From Nitrosopumilus sp. (lineage in GTDB: Archaea > Thermoproteota > Nitrososphaeria > Nitrososphaerales > Nitrosopumilaceae): a stretch of DNA of 64,000 nt. Position numbers and translations under genes: made by a program. Under the pieces are notes generated by a model, which did not search any database, was not told the DNA's origin, and worked only from the letters and a program-made list of their open reading frames with translations. Within the stretch, counting starts at the first letter, position 1. The number at the start of each line of letters is the position of its first letter. The stretch spans positions 800,001 through 864,000 of the forward strand of contig OZ243974.1 of NCBI GenBank assembly GCA_965214775.1. Reading direction: 5' to 3'. Shown one piece after another: positions 2,124 through 36,457 of this stretch.

Positions 2124-5100
2124 TTAGCTTACGTTGATGGTCGTACTTAGCGGTGGTGATAGTGCCGTAGGATTGGTAACGGACTCCCAGACAAATGCAG
2201 TAGCAGTGTATGCTCCTGAATCGGCTGGAATCCATGACACGGCCGGGCTGAATGACTGACCTGGAGTCAGTTCACCATCAATCCATGACAGTGAGACTGT
2301 GACGCCGTTTGCATCCTGAATCTGTACCAGGTATGCAAATAGCTGCTCCTTGTCCTGGCCATTTGCCAAGTCGGCGCTGACCTGTACCTGTTGATCAACG
2401 GAAACAGAGTCTAACGTGTTTCCAAATGAGTCAACTGTCTTCAAGTTAGCAACTGGTGCTCTCTCGAGGGGCGGTACGACAGTGCCGATTAGCGAAGTGG
2501 CCTTGACATCAATACTGTCTCCAGTGTCGTATGGTTCAGGTAGCGTATAATCATCGTAACTTGCGGTGACTGTGTCACCTTCTGCGACTCTGAGTCTGTG
2601 GCCGGTTGATACGTCGGTAACCGTAAAGAATACGGTGCCTTCGAAGATTCCGGTTGCCTCGTTTGTCTCAGTTACGGTAAGACCAATACCTCCTGAATCG
2701 GAGTCAGACCATACATCTACCTCAAAGTTGTCGACTGCTTCTGGATCTAGGTTCATGTCTGGATCAATTATTCTTACAACACCTGTTCCGCTAGCTGGAT
2801 AGCTTGCCTCTAACCACTGGACTTCACCGATGTTCCATCTGACGAGTGCTGACGCAACTACAGTCTCCTTCTCTGAGAATTCAAAGGAGATGGAAAGTCC
2901 GTCATCGTCCCTGGCTGGCAACAGTCCATCAGTTGGACCGTTGCCCTCGGCGTCACGTGGATTTACATCATAGCCGGCATCATCGCCAGTCTCGGAATCG
3001 CCATCAGCATCATATCTGAAACCAGTAAGGATAACCTCACCGGTAAAGATACCTGTGTCGGTTCCGGTCTCGACTAGCTTGTACTGGTCAAGATCGGCGT
3101 CTCTGGTTGAGACCTTTATCGGGTCCAAGTCAGTGTCACCGATTTCGTCAACCAGGTCGCCGTCGAAGTTGTGGTCTGGGGCTACGATTGTGATGTATAC
3201 CTTGTCAGTCCATGTGTAGACTTTTTGATCAAGCTCTATGGTTGCACCGAAGTTCGAAGTGTAGACAGTCAGGTTGACGTCTTCGTCTTCGTCACCTACA
3301 TAGTCAGATCCGGATGGGCCCCAGTCAGTATACTCGAGGGCAATCTCTTCGCCCCTTTCTAACCTGTCACCAGCAAGTTCATCAGGAACCTCGATGACAA
3401 CCTGGAAGATACCAGTGCTGTCACCTGTTTCTCTAAAGTCTGTTGGTTCTGGGTCGAATTTGTCTGGCTCAACGCCACGGTCGCCCATGGAAGTTGTTGC
3501 CGCATCAGAGTCCCATTCGATCAGGTCCAGGTCATAGGTCTCGGCACCGTCATTGTCCAGATCCAAGTCTGGCTCAATGAGTGTCAGGATCATGTCTGAA
3601 CCGATGATGTAGACGGATTTGTCGGATTGCAATACGCCGTTTCTCAGGTCAAAGGTTGCAGAGTCAGTTACAGAGTTCTCATCGCCTGATGCATCAGTCG
3701 GGTCTGTGTATTCTACCTGGAGAATGTCTCCCTGCAGGATACAGAAGTCCTCACCCTGTGAGTAGGTATCATCGACATCAAACCTGTCTTCTGTGTTACC
3801 AAGGGCGTTATTCTCGCTGTCGACAAGGATTTCGTAAACAGAGTCGTTTGGACATTGGTTATCTGCAGGACCATCAGTGTATCTAAGAGTCAAGTCTAAC
3901 TCGTAAATGCCTGCGTCTGGTGCAATTTCGGAAATCGGACCAAATTCCCTGATGTTGTCTGCCGGATTAGGGTTATCATCACCGACATCAATCAGGCCAT
4001 CTTTTGGATCCGGACCGCCTGCATAACCGAGTACTACTGTTGAAGAACCTCTGGTAACAGAGACTTTAACAGGTCCTACTCCCTCGTCTGTAGTGGTAGC
4101 GATTGAATCTTCACCGGATGCGTTTACGTCAAAGTCTGGATCGTTGACTCGGATGTGTATTGTGAGATCACCGTTAGCAAGGTATTCGCCAGTGTCTAGA
4201 CCACGTGTACCTCCCATACCAGTTTGATGGATTGGGAATACTGATCTGCCATCTGGGTTTTGTGAATTGCTGTCAGCAAAGTCATCTGCGGTACCAAATG
4301 GTACTGGATAGACGGTTCTGTCCAGGCTGACAGAGCCGGTGTTGGCCCTAACGCCTGCCGAATCGCCTACCTCGATGATTTCGCCGGATGCGTCACGGAA
4401 GTCAACATAGTTGACCTCAATGTCAAGTCCTGTCGTAGTCTCTGGCTGTGTTGCATCTGGCCTACACCATTGGGATGGAATCTGGAAGTCACCAGTGAAA
4501 ATGCCTGTATCTGAACCAGTTTCCGCTAATGTGAATCCGGTAGCGCCAAGACCGTCAAAGTCTGCGCCTGTAGAACAGTCATTTCCATCAGTCCACTTGG
4601 CATCATCAAATGTGACATCAAGCAGTCTTCCCAGAGAACCAAATGCAAGGCCGTCTGGATTATCGTTTGATCTCTTCTCCAAATTACTGTGTACATCGTT
4701 ACCGACTTGGTCATTGTCTGCATCAAGTGATGCGTCAATGTCAACGACGGTATAGATTTCGAGCAGGTCAGAGTCCACGTTGAGATCCGCGTCCTCAAGC
4801 GTAATCACCACGGTATCAGCAACCTTGTAGGAATCCTGATTCAGTGACACGACGCCAGAGTGGCTCGGAGCTGGTTCCTGGTCAGATCGTACAGTAATAA
4901 CGCCATCTTCACCCAAGTCATTGTATGAGACTCTAGGTGAATCCTCGTCAGTAAGATCCTCAATTACGATGAAGGAGGGATCACTGGCGATGGTTGCAAG
5001 ACCAGAGTAAGTACCCTCGTCTAAGATGTTAAGCTGGTTGACCATGGCGTATTCAAGTTCGCCCTCAAAGGTGCTGGTATTGTCACCTGACTCTTCGGCC

Positions 5101-7061
5101 TCGATTCTGATTATTTGGTTTGCAACCCTTTCTCCGGCTTGCTCACCGTCATCAGTAAAACCAAATGAGAAGAAGTCGGTGACTATCGGATATTTACCGT
5201 CGATTTCAAACGTAGTACCTTCGCTCCAGGAATACTGTATGCCTACTGTACCACTTCCTACATCATTGGCCACAGCGCTAGACTGGGCGTCTGTTAGGAC
5301 TACCAGACCCTGTGGATCAGATACTTGGAAGCTGGCTATTGGACGATTGGTATCCGCAACACCCAGCAGACTGATCGTAATGTCGCCTGTAGTGTTAAGC
5401 GATCTGATGTCGTAGTTGAGTAGGTTGTATCCTTTGAAGTCAGTGCTCCAGTCCACGGTGTTTGATTCCATGACTGTGCCTTGCAGATCGCCTATTGTGG
5501 CTTTTGTATCAACGAGTATCGTTGTAATATCGGTAGAATCGATTAAAGTACTACCAGAATACGTGATGACTGCTCTGTCACTGAATGTTTCAATGTTGAC
5601 GTCTGGAGTGGCTAAGTTATTCGCACTATCACGTACCTCTACAGTAGCATTAGTATCGCCCTCGACTCCACCTTCACCTAACGTAAACGGATCACCAGTA
5701 CTAAGTGCTGGAATCAGTGATACGTTTGGATCAGATAGAATAAGATCCTCGTCTGCCCTGCTGTTCTTGTTTTGATCACCATCGACAATGACTACTGGAA
5801 TGGTCTCACCAGAGTTCCATGTATCGTCGACTGGTTGGATGACAACATCAGCAGTGTAAAATCCTGCCAGAACGGTTACTGGTGAATCGTTATAGCCTAC
5901 TGTCGCCGATGTTTGTCTTTTGGCATCATTGCTTATTGTGAGAATCGATGTGTCGGATTCGTCATACGTACCAAATACACCGCTGTTTGGTCCCTGTTCT
6001 GTGAGCGTTACAAGGTGTGTGATATCACCAATGGATATGTGAGCAGCATCACTGTTAGATTGAAGCTCCACAACATCAACATCAGTGCCCTGTGCATCAG
6101 GATCCAGCGTAAAGACCGCATCTTCCTGCATCAGGGATGCACCGGAAACGTCGGTAGTGACAAGAGCGCCACCATCGATGCCCGGCGAGTTGCCGCTTTG
6201 GTCAAAGACCTGGTAGTATGTTCCACCGTTTATGGCGTCCCAACTCCAAGAGTCCTCGTCTGTAGGATCGATGTTCAGCCAGGTGTCGGTAACGGTTGCG
6301 TGGACTTGTGAGCCCGGTGTGTATTTGCTACCGTCCATCATGATACCGGCAAAGCCGTCGACTGTGTCAAAGGTGAGCGAAGTCGACTGGACTCCGCCAC
6401 CGGCGTTGTACTGTACGACAACACTGCCTGTTGGGTTGAGATCATAAAGTTGGATTATGGGCCAAAATTTGTTTTTAAGGCCAATTTGACCCCGCTCAAC
6501 AGTAATGTTGTTATTATTGTCCATTCTTTCTGGATTGATTTCTTTTTCTCCTCTTAGTACGTTCATGATGTCACTACCAGCGAGTGCGCCTGTAGTCGTA
6601 CAGTCTGCAGTAGCATTACTGGGAATTGCAACACCATCAGCATCGGAAAATGAGACGCCACCAATTGTATCCTCATAACAGATTGTACCAAAGTCAAGTC
6701 CTTTACCAGGATATTCTACGGTATCATCTGCGTTTTCTGCCATTGTTTTTTCGGCAAAGTAGCCGTACCATTGGCCGTCAGTGGCCTGAACCATTCTCAA
6801 GTCCTGGCCGTTAACGGTAACGTCGGGCTCACCTTCGCTTTCATCGGTATCACGTAGGTCAGAATCACTAATGACTACCTCGATTACCTGAGGACCTGCC
6901 ATATAGTTCTCAAACTGTGAGTTTTCTGCGGAGACAACCAGGTTCTCGTTGGCAGCATATGCAGCCGGCATCATGCCAGGGACTGCAAATGTCATACCGC
7001 CGGCAACCATGATTGCCATCAATATTAAACTAGTTGTTTTTCTTTGTATTTCTTCATGCAT
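2124..7061 (-). CDS. slaA: Major S-layer protein, Nitrosopumilus SlaA-like
   Basis: 1645 aa, very acidic, signal peptide, repeated ETGxxTGIFxG Ig-like modules, typical C-terminus AFVWESVTNPTALSPP. Confidence 0.9.
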   Translation of the reverse strand: MHEEIQRKTTSLILMAIMVAGGMTFAVPGMMPAAYAANENLVVSAENSQFENYMAGPQVIEVVISDSDLRDTDESEGEPDVTVNGQDLRMVQATDGQWYGYFAEKTMAENADDTVEYPGKGLDFGTICYEDTIGGVSFSDADGVAIPSNATADCTTTGALAGSDIMNVLRGEKEINPERMDNNNNITVERGQIGLKNKFWPIIQLYDLNPTGSVVVQYNAGGGVQSTSLTFDTVDGFAGIMMDGSKYTPGSQVHATVTDTWLNIDPTDEDSWSWDAINGGTYYQVFDQSGNSPGIDGGALVTTDVSGASLMQEDAVFTLDPDAQGTDVDVVELQSNSDAAHISIGDITHLVTLTEQGPNSGVFGTYDESDTSILTISNDAKRQTSATVGYNDSPVTVLAGFYTADVVIQPVDDTWNSGETIPVVIVDGDQNKNSRADEDLILSDPNVSLIPALSTGDPFTLGEGGVEGDTNATVEVRDSANNLATPDVNIETFSDRAVITYSGSTLIDSTDITTILVDTKATIGDLQGTVMESNTVDWSTDFKGYNLLNYDIRSLNTTGDITISLLGVADTNRPIASFQVSDPQGLVVLTDAQSSAVANDVGSGTVGIQYSWSEGTTFEIDGKYPIVTDFFSFGFTDDGEQAGERVANQIIRIEAEESGDNTSTFEGELEYAMVNQLNILDEGTYSGLATIASDPSFIVIEDLTDEDSPRVSYNDLGEDGVITVRSDQEPAPSHSGVVSLNQDSYKVADTVVITLEDADLNVDSDLLEIYTVVDIDASLDADNDQVGNDVHSNLEKRSNDNPDGLAFGSLGRLLDVTFDDAKWTDGNDCSTGADFDGLGATGFTLAETGSDTGIFTGDFQIPSQWCRPDATQPETTTGLDIEVNYVDFRDASGEIIEVGDSAGVRANTGSVSLDRTVYPVPFGTADDFADSNSQNPDGRSVFPIHQTGMGGTRGLDTGEYLANGDLTIHIRVNDPDFDVNASGEDSIATTTDEGVGPVKVSVTRGSSTVVLGYAGGPDPKDGLIDVGDDNPNPADNIREFGPISEIAPDAGIYELDLTLRYTDGPADNQCPNDSVYEILVDSENNALGNTEDRFDVDDTYSQGEDFCILQGDILQVEYTDPTDASGDENSVTDSATFDLRNGVLQSDKSVYIIGSDMILTLIEPDLDLDNDGAETYDLDLIEWDSDAATTSMGDRGVEPDKFDPEPTDFRETGDSTGIFQVVIEVPDELAGDRLERGEEIALEYTDWGPSGSDYVGDEDEDVNLTVYTSNFGATIELDQKVYTWTDKVYITIVAPDHNFDGDLVDEIGDTDLDPIKVSTRDADLDQYKLVETGTDTGIFTGEVILTGFRYDADGDSETGDDAGYDVNPRDAEGNGPTDGLLPARDDDGLSISFEFSEKETVVASALVRWNIGEVQWLEASYPASGTGVVRIIDPDMNLDPEAVDNFEVDVWSDSDSGGIGLTVTETNEATGIFEGTVFFTVTDVSTGHRLRVAEGDTVTASYDDYTLPEPYDTGDSIDVKATSLIGTVVPPLERAPVANLKTVDSFGNTLDSVSVDQQVQVSADLANGQDKEQLFAYLVQIQDANGVTVSLSWIDGELTPGQSFSPAVSWIPADSGAYTATAFVWESVTNPTALSPPLSTTINVS

Positions 7062-7475
7062 AGTTATTAATTATTAGTCAAAATCTTGGTTTATAAGCTA
7101 AATGGATCATTTGTCCATTTTCTTATTATGCCATATCTGCCTGCTTATAGCATCGACATTCTGGCCCCCGTCAAGTAGGAATGCCGATGCGTGAACTTTG
7201 TTCATGTTGTTCTTGGCGGGGGCATCAGATTACATTCCCATTGGTATTTGCAGGATATGAGGATGCCAAATGCTGCCCATAGATATGATCCGAAATTAGA
7301 AGCTATGCGAGTTTTTCAAGCGATTTCACGGACAATTTTTACGTATTTTGTCGATATTTTGAGATATTTTACGCAGATTCGTTCACAGATGGTTCAGAAT
7401 TCGCTAATTTTGGGTCAACTGACAAGTATTTTTGCAATGAAATCCACGGCTGCGTTGCCCGTCTTGTCACCAAGC

Positions 7476-7603
7476 AGTTGTCGCCTAATTCCATTTAATT
7501 GACTCAATCTGCCATGTTTCTTTTTTGAATTTCCTCCCTTTTGCACGCATTCCATGTGGCATCTCAACGGTTTTCAGGAATTCTGGTAAATTAGGAGACA
7601 ACC
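7476..7603. mobile_element. MITE family D, copy 2
   Basis: GTTGTCGCCTAATT...AATTAGGAGACAACC; colinear with 393-518. Confidence 0.8.
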
Positions 7604-7898
7604 CACACAGGCACACGAAACGCGCCATACGCCCCCCACCATAAAATTCCAAGCACAAATTAAACTTCAAGCAAAAATTAAAACATTATTCCACCAACAA
7701 ATTCAATTTCATCGCTACATTCACACAAATTCAAATTCCAACAAAAATAAAAAAGCGTGCCCCGCCGTCATACAAATTACATTTTAAAATAAATTCAAAC
7801 GTCAAACTAAAAAATTATAATTTTTTCCTGGCATCTACTGCAAAAGATCAAACAGACATGAATTCAAGCTAGACAGACAACTGGTATGATGGTATGGG

Positions 7899-7933
7899 GG
7901 TTGTTTCCTAATTCCACTTGTTTGACTCAATCT
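7899..7933. mobile_element. Left end of a family D element, interrupted by the IS110-type insertion
   Basis: GGTTGTTTCCTAATTCCACTTGTTTGACTCAATCT matches the first 35 bp of copies 1 and 2. Confidence 0.7.
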
Positions 7934-7990
7934 CCCATATGAAATCGTACCTAATCCTACCGTGGACTCTTGCCAGCTTGATGTTCCAAA

Positions 7991-8218
7991 TCAGGACAAT
8001 GTTACTATGCGATGCATCCCCATATACTTTCTCTGCGTGAGAGTCTTGTTCTGAATGCGGTACTCTTCTCCGGTGGTCAGCATGTGCCAGATTATCTCCA
8101 GCATATGCCTTGCAACTGCAATCTTTGCCTTCTGCCATCCTCGTCTCTTTCTTATCCTTTCATATATAGAACCAAGTCTTGAGTCGTTTCGTACTGCTAC
8201 TGTGGCCGAGTTGATCAT
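7991..8218 (-). pseudogene. IS110 recombinase remnant: start MIN fused to the C-terminal region
   Basis: YERIRKRRGWQKAKIAVARHMLEIIWHMLTTGEEY is a typical IS110 C-terminus; SD GGAGGTGA precedes the ATG. Confidence 0.85.
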
Positions 8219-8239
8219 GTTATCACCTCCTTTTTGATC

Positions 8240-8400
8240 AAAATGCCTGATCCGGGCGGAATCTCCCATTCACCGTCTGCGCGGTATATTGCTTTCCGCC
8301 TGCTGTTGTTGCAAGTCAGTCTGTTTGACACCCTTGTACATGGTAAGATTAAATCGACTCTCAGGCCCAGCAGTAATTGTATATCACAGGATACAGATAA
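8240..8400 (-). ncRNA. Putative IS110 bridge RNA, copy 1 (target-binding hairpin 8314-8359; donor-binding hairpin 8256-8299)
   Basis: Covarying stems versus 34810-34960; loops match the element's own junctions; boundaries approximate. Confidence 0.75.
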
Positions 8401-8541
8401 GATTTCATATAGCGTCTGTTTGTTTGCATCGCAATTTATTTTGGCACCATCTGAATTTTGTTTTTGAGACACATATGGTTACACGTATACGATGATAATA
8501 ACGGACAGGAAAAAGTCCGGGGACGACAACAAGACGGTGGA

Positions 8542-8632
8542 GTACGAGTTTGCCCCTCACCTGAGATACGGCGTGGCAGGCGTGAACATGAGGACTCTGG
8601 ACAGCAGTGACGCCCAAGGGGTAAACTCGTAC
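8542..8632. mobile_element. MITE family A (91 bp; TIR GTACGAGTTT(G/A)CCCCT)
   Basis: 16-bp TIR; reverse-orientation homolog of 35033-35123; no TSD visible. Confidence 0.85.
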
Positions 8633-9080
8633 CGTCCAAATTTCCTGTTCACACCTGATTTTATGGAGGATCTGATGTTGTACTTTCGGATAGTCTCTCA
8701 GGATGCCTGTACCCCTAGCCTTCGGGCCGCACCAGATCCAGGGAGGCCCGTGGCATGTCATACTCGAAGCGAAAACGGCTGAGGAGATCGGTGCCAAACA
8801 GTGCAAAGGAGAATGGGTCTTTGATCTCCGGATCCGGTCTCAAGACTTGCATGTCGGCGTGTAGCACGATGGGTTCTGAAGCCTGATCGTCTTCGAATAT
8901 GAATTTCGTGTCATCCATCACGTATGTGTCCTGCCTGCCGCCTATCCCCGTGGTACCGGTGGGGTGTTTTTCCAGCAACGCAAAGTCAATTTTGTGGTCT
9001 TTGGCTGCACCCTGCAGCATGGTTGTACTATTTGCCCCCGTATCTACCAAGAATCTGGTCTTGATAAAATTACCGTCACG

Positions 9081-10215
9081 TAGTATCCTCGACTACCAAT
9101 TGATCACAAAAAGGACAATTTTTTTCAACCAAAGGATCTAAGAGCTATTAGTCCCATATATACACATGAAAGGAAAGAAGGAATTACCGACGGGAACAGC
9201 GTTCCTGTACGGGATAGCAAGCAAGGACGAGCTTTTTAGGATGCACAAGTCCGAGAAGGACGCCAAGGCGGCAATCCGGCTCCTTGCATACCACATGAGA
9301 AAGTGCGGCGCGAGCATATATGATATTGCCGAGAAGCTGAGCAGGCCGTATGGAACCGTACGATACTGGCTGGTGCGTGCGCACAAGCATGGCCTGGAGG
9401 GCAGGTTTGACATAAAGCATGGCGCCCCGTGCAGGCTCGACAAGAAACAGCTTGAACGGCTGCGCGCAGACCTGATCAAGGGCCCGGACAACTGCGGCTT
9501 TAAGGCCACAACATGGACAGGGCCGCTGGTCATTGCCCACGTCAAAAAGAAGTTCGGCATCACGTATGCAGAAACGAGCATGTACGACCTGCTGCACAGA
9601 ATCGGCTTCTCATGCAGAAAGCCCAGGCCAAAACACCCAAAATCAGCCTCAGAATCCGAGAAAAAGGAGTTCAAAAAAAAAGCTAGGCAGAGCGCAAAGT
9701 ACTATTCAAAAAAGGGGTACACGGTAATGATAGGCGACGAGTCCATGTTCATACTGGGATGGAACGTCAAGAACAGCTGGTACCCCGTAGGAGAGCCGGT
9801 CTATACGCCCGTCAGCCTGTCTAGGAAGCGGTTCTATGTCATAGGGGCCCTCTCAAGAAACAGGTTTGACTATCGCTTTTACGAAAAGGCCAACACGGGA
9901 ACGTTCTACAAGTTTCTCAGGACACTGCGCCGCAAGTACGGCAAGGTGTTGTTGTTTGTCGACAACGCATCGTACCACAAGTCAGCAGAACTCAATAGAA
10001 AGATGGCCAAGTGGAACGGGGACGTGGTGCTAAAGTACCTGCCGCCGTACGCGCCGGAGCTTAACAACTCGGAGGGGCAGTGGCGCGGGTTCAAAAAGGC
10101 GACTTCAAACTGCCTTTACAAGACCGTCAAGGAGATGCAGAGATCACTGCGCAGTATGACGCGCAGGGGCGAGATAAAGGTGGTAAAGATGAACAAATGG
10201 CTGACGTAGATACTA
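9081..10215 (+). mobile_element. IS630-family element type B, copy 1 (1135 bp), flanked by CG
   Basis: Ends TAGTATC...GATACTA; near-identical to 47266-48400. Confidence 0.95.
9166..10209 (+). CDS. IS630 transposase (single unframeshifted ORF)
   Basis: HTH region, GDES, DNASYH and LPPYAPELNNSE motifs. Confidence 0.95.
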   Translation: MKGKKELPTGTAFLYGIASKDELFRMHKSEKDAKAAIRLLAYHMRKCGASIYDIAEKLSRPYGTVRYWLVRAHKHGLEGRFDIKHGAPCRLDKKQLERLRADLIKGPDNCGFKATTWTGPLVIAHVKKKFGITYAETSMYDLLHRIGFSCRKPRPKHPKSASESEKKEFKKKARQSAKYYSKKGYTVMIGDESMFILGWNVKNSWYPVGEPVYTPVSLSRKRFYVIGALSRNRFDYRFYEKANTGTFYKFLRTLRRKYGKVLLFVDNASYHKSAELNRKMAKWNGDVVLKYLPPYAPELNNSEGQWRGFKKATSNCLYKTVKEMQRSLRSMTRRGEIKVVKMNKWLT

Positions 10216-34627: not shown

Positions 34628-34809
34628 CCCGCATCTGCCGGGGTGCGGTAAGGCCATAGGCCTGAACAATGAACTGACGCGCCCTAGGATGCGGCGTGAG
34701 GTACATGATGATCAGGATCTTGTCCGGCAGTGCAGCCTAGGGAGTGGTGGGATAAACTCCAATATCAAATTATGCTGATTCCTTGCAGTATGAGACGTTA
34801 TATCAAATC

Positions 34810-34960
34810 TTATCTGTAGCGGACGCCATATTATCCGTGTTGGGCCCAAGAGCCGAAGTAAACTTGCCACACATGAGGGCGCGTAAGAGACTGGCTCAGA
34901 GTAGACGGACGACGAAATGCCACATAATCGAGGGCGAATGGGAGTTTTCCGTTCAGTTGG
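34810..34960 (+). ncRNA. Putative IS110 bridge RNA, copy 2 (target-binding hairpin 34851-34896)
   Basis: Covarying stems; loops differ from copy 1; boundaries approximate. Confidence 0.72.
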
Positions 34961-35032
34961 GCACACACACTTTGATCAAAAAGGAGGTGATAAAATGATC
35001 AACATAGGAATAGACGTTCATAAGAAGACATG

Positions 35033-35305: not shown

Positions 35306-35434
35306 CAAACAGTCGAGGCCTTTGACGGGCAATCTGACCGTGTTTTGACTCAAAGACTTTTACTGTTGCCATATTATTGGTACATTTTTCGAATGAACCA
35401 CTTTGCTAATTATTCAAAACGAGTATTGCGGATC

Positions 35435-36457
35435 ATGGCACTTGGAGAGACTAGTACAAAATATTCCGTATCCAATCAAGAGATACAAAATCTAAGTGAT
35501 GATGCCCAAAAATACTCTGAAAAACTATTGGGAATATTTGATGAAACTCACAAGGTCATTATCGGACAAGAGAACGCACTGCAAAAAATCCTCATCTCAA
35601 TTATTGCAGACGGACATGTGCTTTTGGAAAGCGTTCCCGGTCTTGCTAAAACTTTGATGGTAAAAACCATGGCACAAATTTTCAATGTAGATCACGTTAG
35701 AATTCAATTTACGCCAGATCTCTTGCCTGCAGATATTTTAGGAACAAAAATTTACAAAAATTCTTCGGGTTCCTTTGTCACCCAAAAGGGCCCAATCTTT
35801 CACAATTTTGTTTTAGCTGACGAAATTAATCGCGCACCGCCCAAAGTCCAGTCTGCATTGCTTGAGGCAATGCAAGAAAGGAATGTGAGCATTCATGGCG
35901 ATACCTATGAACTAAAACGGCCGTTTTTGGTTCTGGCCACCCAAAACCCGATTGAAAACGAAGGAACATACAGGCTTCCAGAAGCCCAGGTTGACAGATT
36001 TGCCCTGAAAATCCTACTTGATTATCCATCAAAGCAAGAAGAGATGGATATCATCGAGAGAAATTCTTCAAACTACAACCCCGAAATCAAAGCAATGGTT
36101 AGCCCCGAAGAAATTCTAGAGATTCAAAAGTTTAATGAGAAAATTTACGCCGATAAAGTGATCACTGAATATATTGCAGATATTGTCAACGCAACAAGAA
36201 ACCCAAAGGAATATGAGCTGGATTTAGAAGACATAGTTGAATTTGGCGCATCGCCAAGAGCATCAATATGGCTAATGAGAACAGCAAAGGCAAACGCGCT
36301 GCTTGATGGAAGGGGATTTATCATTCCTGAGGACGTAAAGGCAGTTGCTCACGAAGTCTTGCGTCATAGAATTATCCTGACTTTTGCAGCAGAAGCAAAC
36401 GGGTTGACTGCCGATAAAGTCATTGACTTTGTTTTAGAAAAAATTAATTCCCCATAG
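35435..36457 (+). CDS. MoxR-family AAA+ ATPase
   Basis: PGLAKT, RIQFTPDLLPAD, DEINRA and ATQNPIE motifs. Confidence 0.95.
   Translation: MALGETSTKYSVSNQEIQNLSDDAQKYSEKLLGIFDETHKVIIGQENALQKILISIIADGHVLLESVPGLAKTLMVKTMAQIFNVDHVRIQFTPDLLPADILGTKIYKNSSGSFVTQKGPIFHNFVLADEINRAPPKVQSALLEAMQERNVSIHGDTYELKRPFLVLATQNPIENEGTYRLPEAQVDRFALKILLDYPSKQEEMDIIERNSSNYNPEIKAMVSPEEILEIQKFNEKIYADKVITEYIADIVNATRNPKEYELDLEDIVEFGASPRASIWLMRTAKANALLDGRGFIIPEDVKAVAHEVLRHRIILTFAAEANGLTADKVIDFVLEKINSP

Follow-up and report, generated by a model that had tools for sequence, protein, structure and literature searches.

The 64,000-nucleotide stretch of DNA analysed here (the window) belongs to a complete, single-contig genome of 2.83 Mb (G000), which also contains a full-length archaeal SSU rRNA match of 1459 bits. 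At window positions 7934-8417 lies a small mobile element of 484 bp, counting one copy of its core dinucleotide, whose transposase sense is the minus strand (Table 1). On the plus strand, the right-end junction reads ...GACTCAAT-CT(7932-7933)-CCCATATG... and the left-end junction reads ...CATATAGCGT-CT(8416-8417)-GTTTG. Contigs from four sequencing runs cover the right-end junction (7557-7959) with 0 differences. A preliminary description of this DNA had located the element and quoted strings for its junctions and loops, all of which are present in the sequence; its end coordinate of 8422 takes in 5 nt of flanking DNA, the element itself ending at 8417. The sole ORF with transposase-like residues in this copy is a remnant without a Pfam match, whose longest frame (7991-8269) spans 92 aa, or 75 aa from the authentic start at 8218. 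This 75-aa in-frame ORF sits behind an intact ribosome-binding site and corresponds to the C-terminal end of the transposase.

Table 1. The element and its flanking DNA, in window coordinates.
Feature	Position	Strand	Description
Right flank (transposase frame)	7893..7931	+	First ~39 nt of a ~128-bp repeat family; last 6 nt CTCAAT
Core dinucleotide, right-end junction	7932..7933	-	CT on the plus strand, AG in the transposase sense
Right end	7934..7946	-	3-nt extension (GGG, transposase sense), then 10-bp subterminal inverted repeat (7937-7946); IR10 seen in full copy L057
Remnant ORF, 75 aa	7991..8218	-	Start codon plus 2 codons, joined in frame to the C-terminal ~72 transposase residues
Predicted bridge (seek) RNA core	8239..8373	-	Target loop, then donor loop; model R1 124.3 bits, E 1.1e-31
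Donor-binding loop	8255..8300	-	Outer helix 8294-8300 with 8255-8261, plus inner hairpin
3′ donor guide AUGGG + AG	8263..8269	-	Equals last 5 nt of right end plus core
Short 5′ donor guide AGC	8291..8293	-	Reverse complement of left-end nt 5-7 (GCT)
Target-binding loop	8313..8360	-	Outer helix 8355-8360 with 8313-8318; inner hairpin 8329-8345
3′ target guide UCAAAC + core AG	8321..8328	-	Same sense as left flank; pairs with the other strand of that flank
5′ target guide UUUAAU + core CU	8346..8353	-	Pairs with transposase-sense strand of right flank
Left end	8401..8417	-	7-nt extension including core (8411-8417) and 10-bp subterminal inverted repeat (8401-8410)
Left flank (transposase frame)	8418..8482	+	Terminal 65 nt of the left end of IS-B; IS-B body missing here

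The surroundings of the element contain further repeats and ORFs. A full copy of the ~128-bp repeat lies at 7477-7604 and a ~91-bp repeat at 8542-8632, each with dozens of copies in the genome. On the plus strand lies an IS630-like transposase of 347 aa (9166-10209; DDE_3, 1.2e-26, together with HTH domains) with an element end near 9077, and the ~90 nt upstream recur at some 20 loci, with ~98% identity at about 15. Two ORFs on the minus strand encode a 1645-aa protein whose N terminus has a hydrophobic segment and whose sequence is acidic and rich in repeats (2124-7061) and a 111-aa protein with weak, sub-threshold aspartyl-protease-like matches (8715-9050; E 0.025).

Across the genome, 49 matches to this region were found, and the copies were sorted by BLAST with a full copy as the query. 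The full-length IS110 that the preliminary description had suggested seeking in the same genome is represented by three intact elements of 1338-1340 bp, at 2030284, 2746642 and 2751230, each with a 376-aa ORF; one disrupted copy lies at 2634801, and the genome also has many left-end fragments and diverged subfamilies at 67-86% identity. The right ends of one diverged subfamily (403763, 834793, 1100778 and 1191331) were not found, its copies being truncated. The window copy consists of full-element positions 1-208 joined to 1051-1340, with the deletion junction at window 8209/8210. This type I form, in which the deletion falls between two 9-nt near-repeats (full positions 200-208 and 1042-1050), has four copies in G000: the window copy, those at 181545 and 2787934, and an interrupted one at 1124124. 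A type II form (1-386 joined to 1227-1340) has three. The type I junction is also present in a second genome, G151. There, locus L069 (1805-2211) has the type I form, with the junction, left flank and guides of 181545 and 1124124, and ends after ~400 nt.

Comparison of the copies confirms the window copy as a non-autonomous, internally deleted derivative of a 1340-bp IS110-family element, with no recombinase encoded, and it has diverged 5-7% from its siblings. The RNA-guided recombinase lineage proposed in the preliminary description has intact genes elsewhere in the genome, but none in this copy. The full ORF contains the domains PF01548 (7e-28) and PF02371 (6.5e-23) and scores 253 bits, against a cut-off of 140, with the model NF033542, "IS110 family RNA-guided transposase". 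Its catalytic D, E, D, D and Ser residues align with those of the IS621 transposase chain 8wt6, which it matches with an E value of 1e-12, mostly in the C-terminal half.

Upstream of the ORF, from the left end to the start codon, the element has a non-coding region of 199 nt; the region downstream is ~59 nt long. The upstream region is the most variable part among the copies, with the variation confined to two short blocks and the surroundings conserved. RNAalifold, applied to 15 copies within the genome, predicted both helical parts of a first loop, its outer helix and its inner hairpin, and for a second loop the inner hairpin; the outer helix of the latter was taken from a single-sequence fold. 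A long-range pairing between the 5′ end and the donor-guide region, also proposed by RNAalifold, was without covariation and was left out of the model. When 16 sequences from G000 and other genomes were aligned with MAFFT (A2), the four helices were 89.7% paired, compared with 33-50% when the partners are slid, and pairs changed on both sides number 7, compared with 3.1 ± 1.1 in shuffles (0 of 500). In the target loop, compensatory changes occur in four of the six outer pairs and in 1 to 3 of the four inner pairs. The folding energy of the window sequence alone is no better than that of shuffles (z = +0.64); the support for the hairpins comes from covariation, not from single-sequence folding energy.

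The covariance model R1 matches 32 places in G000, two of them in the window, and 19 in loci of relatives. In the model-fitted alignment of relatives (A4), 94.2% of cells are paired, a figure that leans towards the structure to which the alignment was fitted, and compensatory changes are seen in 12 of 20 pairs, with at least two such pairs in each helix. An oligo-T run lies behind the RNA core, near 8242-8245. A scan of window positions 7000-9500 against Rfam (E <= 10) returned one irrelevant weak match and no family that fits the bridge RNA region. The second R1 match in the window (34793-35030, plus strand) is an orphan left end carrying the complete bridge RNA of a diverged subfamily, and at 137.9 bits it is the highest-scoring R1 match of the genome. 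Its sequence breaks off soon after the start of the transposase, and a 370-aa ORF (35345-36457) lies downstream of the break; the left flank reads ..GTATG-AG and the guide CGTAAG-AG.

The internal strands of the first loop agree with the DNA on either side of the element. In the window, the two flanks fit the guides at 6/6 positions with wobble and at 5/6; the pairing of CTCAAT in the right flank with the 5′ target guide includes two G.U wobbles. For 22 copies of the left end in the genome, agreement between the 6-nt flank preceding the core and the copy's own 3′ guide averages 4.45/6 positions, compared with 2.2 for guides taken from other copies. When this comparison was restricted to the 15 distinct left flanks, the own 3′ guide matched at 4.4/6, compared with 2.29 ± 0.41 after permutation, a value reached in 0 of 100,000 trials. 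We also examined 17 elements with both ends, which became 15 after two duplicate pairs were collapsed. Here the 5′ guide fits the reverse complement of the right flank at 3.67/6 (permuted 2.35 ± 0.28) and the 3′ guide fits the left flank at 4.87/6 (permuted 2.30 ± 0.37), each reached in 0 of 100,000 permutations, figures that overstate the significance because the permutations treat related copies as independent, so that the agreement at the level of guide classes is sturdier.

These classes include CAAAC, TTTAT/CTTAT, CTTAC, TCAGT, GTATG, GTAAG, TTCAC and GTAAT, each lying beside a matching flank. Relatives in other genomes behave alike, with CGTAAG-AG accompanied by AGTAAA-CT in L065 and TGTATG-AG accompanied by AGTAAC-CT in L067. 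Poor fits to the right flank were found in 4 of the 15 elements (c, 1/6; f, g and L062, 2/6 each), of which at least c and f adjoin fragments of other elements, and a fragment with the left end only (2169386) fits its left flank at 1/6. The comparison of loops with flanks over many copies, proposed in the preliminary description together with a covariance model, gave loops that covary with their flanks, and the claim that the loops match the element's own insertion site stands, far beyond chance, for either target guide. The distribution of guides supports the view that the lineage has been naturally reprogrammed, with at least eight guide classes, each in agreement with its own flanks.

After its core letters, the 3′ target guide continues with 2-3 nt (8319-8320 in the window) that equal the first letters of the left end past the core (AC, GAC, ACU or AAU), and read by eye this match holds in four of five core/end classes. 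In IS621, handshake dinucleotides lie next to the right guides, as described in PMC13626964. By analogy, the 2-3 nt after the core may be the counterpart of the IS621 handshake guides.

The second loop follows the ends of the element in the same manner. In five classes its 3′ guide is identical to the right end together with the core (..ATGGG-AG, ..ATGGAT-GT in 8/8, ..ATGAG-TG, ..ATAGA-TG and ..ATAGC-CG), always at positions 126-149 of the non-coding region. Locus by locus these matches are weak, shuffled patterns equalling them in 17 to 707 of 1000 cases, and the weight of the donor-guide case lies in the constant position across families. Best-match searches with single patterns of 7-8 nt are likewise mostly not significant alone, with shuffles reaching the score in 3 to 1000 of 1000. 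The 5′ donor guides, which are just 3-5 nt long and do not include the core, read AGC, AAC(G), AGUG and AGCA where the left ends read ..GCT, ..GTT, ..CACT and ..TGCT, in 13 of 16 rows; AAAG in L037 and GUAUU in L036 also follow their left ends when compared by eye. Two further elements of the preliminary description are borne out by this pattern: the donor guide AUGGGAG tracks the right end through all five classes, and the weakly matching left donor guide AGC is real, becoming AAC, AGUG or AGCA as the left end changes.

The ends and the core dinucleotide change together as well. Subterminal inverted repeats are 10 bp long here and 10-17 bp in those relatives whose ends were correctly found. 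Automatic end finding by the longest inverted repeat was correct in 7 of 11 loci and one base off in L041; it gave spurious AT-rich repeats in L034 and L035 and none in L038. In relatives, the left end has a 7-nt extension whose first letters are the core, and the right end a 3-nt extension with the core behind it; cores assigned in this way are the same at both ends in L057, L063, L032, L059, L037 and L036. The window copy's family and its nearer relatives have an AG core, L034, L059 and L035 a GT core, and L036, L037 and L041 a TG core; the corresponding letters of the 5′ target guide (CU, AC or CA) and of the 3′ guides in both loops shift jointly with it. The earlier assignment to the IS621 type with a CT core is valid only for a target read in the direction opposite to the transposase; read in the transposase sense, the element has an AG core and the IS1111 guide order, and its ends are IS1111-like. 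The broader claim of an IS110-family bridge or seek RNA in an ammonia-oxidising archaeon is upheld by covariation-backed loops that match both flanks and ends.

The left flank of the window copy derives from IS-B, a second IS110-family element of ~1380 bp with a 376-aa ORF (PF01548 and PF02371), exemplified by G000 634160-635537. IS-B has its longer non-coding region downstream of the ORF, and about 5 of its copies are near full length. All 21 copies whose interior was examined have an uninterrupted ..AATCT-GT.. site or a close variant (..GATCT.. or ..AGTCT..), and seven of them read TAAT-CT-GTTTG exactly, the commonest intact site for the window RNA, at a position 65 bp inside IS-B. Judged by its guides, this IS110-family element is thus programmed for insertion into a second member of the family. 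The preliminary description gave the empty target as CTCAAT-CT-GTTTG; both of its halves pair with the guides, but they come from two different and unrelated repeat families, and the commonest intact site is the one in IS-B. A stretch of 103 nt at G000 1299348-1299450 is 100% identical to window 8380-8482 and lies in an unrelated context; it comprises 38 nt of the element's left end and the 65-nt IS-B fragment.

The best explanation, to which we give a probability of roughly 0.9, is that the window holds a deleted IS110-family copy with an upstream bridge/seek RNA of ~135 nt and two loops, served by a recombinase acting in trans and directed to TAAT-CT-GTTTG-like targets. Its basis is the anatomy of the element, the covariation of the RNA, the covariation of guides with flanks and with ends, and the intact recombinase gene elsewhere in the genome. 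In the overall mechanism, which we infer from the sequence and the literature, the DEDD/Ser recombinase from the three intact copies would bind the window RNA in trans. The 5′ strand of the target loop (UUUAAU-CU) would pair with the transposase-sense strand to the right of the 2-nt core and the 3′ strand (UCAAAC-AG) with the opposite strand to its left, while the 3′ strand of the donor loop (AUGGG-AG) would read the right end and core of the element and the short 5′ strand (AGC) the left-end extension. Excision would release the element as a circle, which the recombinase would then integrate at TAAT-CT-GTTTG-like sites 65 bp inside IS-B. Transcription of the RNA, its binding by the recombinase, circle formation and present-day mobility are predictions of this scheme.

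A quite different view would make the upstream region a cis-acting control of transposase expression, with the protein picking the target and the match being a coincidence or a by-product of site preference. The region does lie directly upstream of the ribosome-binding site and start codon, and the long-range pairing returned by RNAalifold joins its extreme 5′ end to the donor-guide region. However, against constant stems the loop letters vary with the flanks between genomes and over at least eight guide classes, the letters of the donor loop and core vary with the element ends, and the region is kept in copies that have no transposase. We regard such a control function as a highly improbable account of these patterns. 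A less radical alternative accepts RNA-guided placement in the past and takes the window copy to be an immobile relic, with an unused RNA whose match records the former insertion. The copy has no recombinase gene, its flanks are chimeric with the body of the targeted IS-B missing, no reciprocal junction was found, and given the divergence of 5-7% it may indeed no longer be mobile. Nevertheless, all 20 modelled base pairs, both target-loop guides and both ends are intact (124 bits), both flanks still pair with the guides, and the genome has three intact recombinase genes. Moreover, the same deletion form occurs at several loci with two different guide sets, and has therefore moved after the deletion. 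We regard a relic as credible on this evidence, at clearly less than even odds.

The origin of the present flanks is a separate matter. Rearrangement after insertion is possible because the flanks come from two repeat families, and exchange between two copies, or between a junction and a look-alike site, could have joined the left end of IS-B to the ~128-bp repeat. It would agree with such an exchange that the IS-B sites are uninterrupted or close variants in 21 of 21 copies, and that the sole exact 13-nt match in G000 to the hypothetical empty site (2259649) has no wider similarity to the window flanks and was rejected as the empty site. On the other side, no reciprocal junction, in which the IS-B interior would be joined to the rest of the ~128-bp repeat, was found among the 21 copies, and the pairing of both present flanks with the guides fits direct insertion into a pre-existing hybrid site. 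An orthologous empty site was sought in the related genome G151, which gave shared repeats only and no synteny. Neither direct insertion into a hybrid site nor later rearrangement is favoured over the other; the specific exchange just described seems to us somewhat short of an even chance.

Relatives of the protein were found in 26 of 151 genomes of the same order, and matches to R1 in 7 of 150 genomes, G000 included. All 16 named records with relatives are MAGs of Thaumarchaeota, Nitrosopumilaceae, Nitrosopumilus or Nitrososphaera. Within the searched set, which comprised one order of ammonia-oxidising archaea and a species-representative collection, the elements were met only in ammonia-oxidising archaea. 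Archaeal IS110 recombinases on record number 662, according to bioRxiv 10.1101/2024.06.21.599552. We found no description of guide RNAs of these archaeal elements in the texts of the papers searched. RNA-guided transposition as a mechanism is not new, and the name of the NCBI model NF033542 already states it. Sequence alone points to transposition guided by bridge or seek RNAs in ammonia-oxidising archaea, with natural retargeting visible within one genome. Judging from the short copies that keep the guides, the RNA module may be able to spread by parasitising the recombinase. A compact native recombinase of 359 aa and an RNA of ~135 nt would make a candidate programmable insertion tool for these archaea, which are not known to have a genetic system.

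An RNA-guided mechanism has been established for IS621 (PMC11208160) and for the seekRNAs of IS1111 and IS110 elements (PMC11187229). The full copies share with IS621 a DEDD RuvC-like domain and a Ser-bearing C-terminal domain with aligned catalytic residues. The RNA is likewise encoded upstream of the gene, with the target loop first and the donor loop second, and each loop reads opposite strands to the left and to the right of a 2-nt core, with the core within the guides and the longer donor guide reading the right end. However, seen in the transposase frame, the order of guides within each loop is reversed relative to IS621 and ISEc21, and the core in the transposase sense is AG (GT or TG in relatives) rather than CT. 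The 10-bp subterminal inverted repeats also differ from the IS621 type, which has none or repeats of 2-3 bp. The protein is only distantly related, the host is archaeal, and the present system is known from its DNA alone.

In its guide order and ends the element resembles IS1111. PMC11187229 describes IS1111 elements with subterminal repeats of 7-17 bp and extensions of 7 bp and 3 bp, and seekRNAs in which the complement of the top strand comes first, an order reversed in the IS110 type. The element described here has subterminal inverted repeats, a 7-bp left and a 3-bp right extension and no duplication beyond the core; its guide that pairs with the top strand comes first, and repeated targets are preferred in one orientation. 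The IS1111 motif GL-P----S(T)G appears as GLTPSRRDSA, with SA rather than SG or TG. In the same account, the long non-coding region of IS1111 elements lies downstream, with ISMtsp17 (upstream) and ISHvo10 (both) as rare exceptions, whereas here it is the upstream region that is long, and the RNA has a simple donor loop like that of IS621. As read from these features, IS1111-type ends and guide order are combined with an upstream RNA of IS621-like two-loop shape, a hybrid layout that bears on the divergence of IS110 and IS1111.

The deleted copies have parallels of their own. In Pseudomonas putida, transposase-less modules made up of the ssr9 RNA gene and the ends of ISPpu9 are multiplied with the aid of the transposase of the full element, according to PMC12288879. 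There, however, Ssr9 lies downstream and is not required for transposition, whereas here the RNA carries guides and the short elements arose by internal deletion. The copies also resemble MITEs, being short and internally deleted with their ends kept, present in several copies and dependent on a transposase in trans; unlike MITEs, they carry their own targeting RNA, and each copy can thereby specify its own site. It is conceivable that these elements form a distinct third layout of IS110-family RNA-guided transposons, whose mini-elements retarget by loop mutation, borrow the recombinase and prefer the left end of a rival IS110-family element, a proposal that we advance tentatively and that may well claim too much. 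What lies at this locus is, in the terms of the known systems, a known kind of RNA-guided mobile element with an unusual layout.
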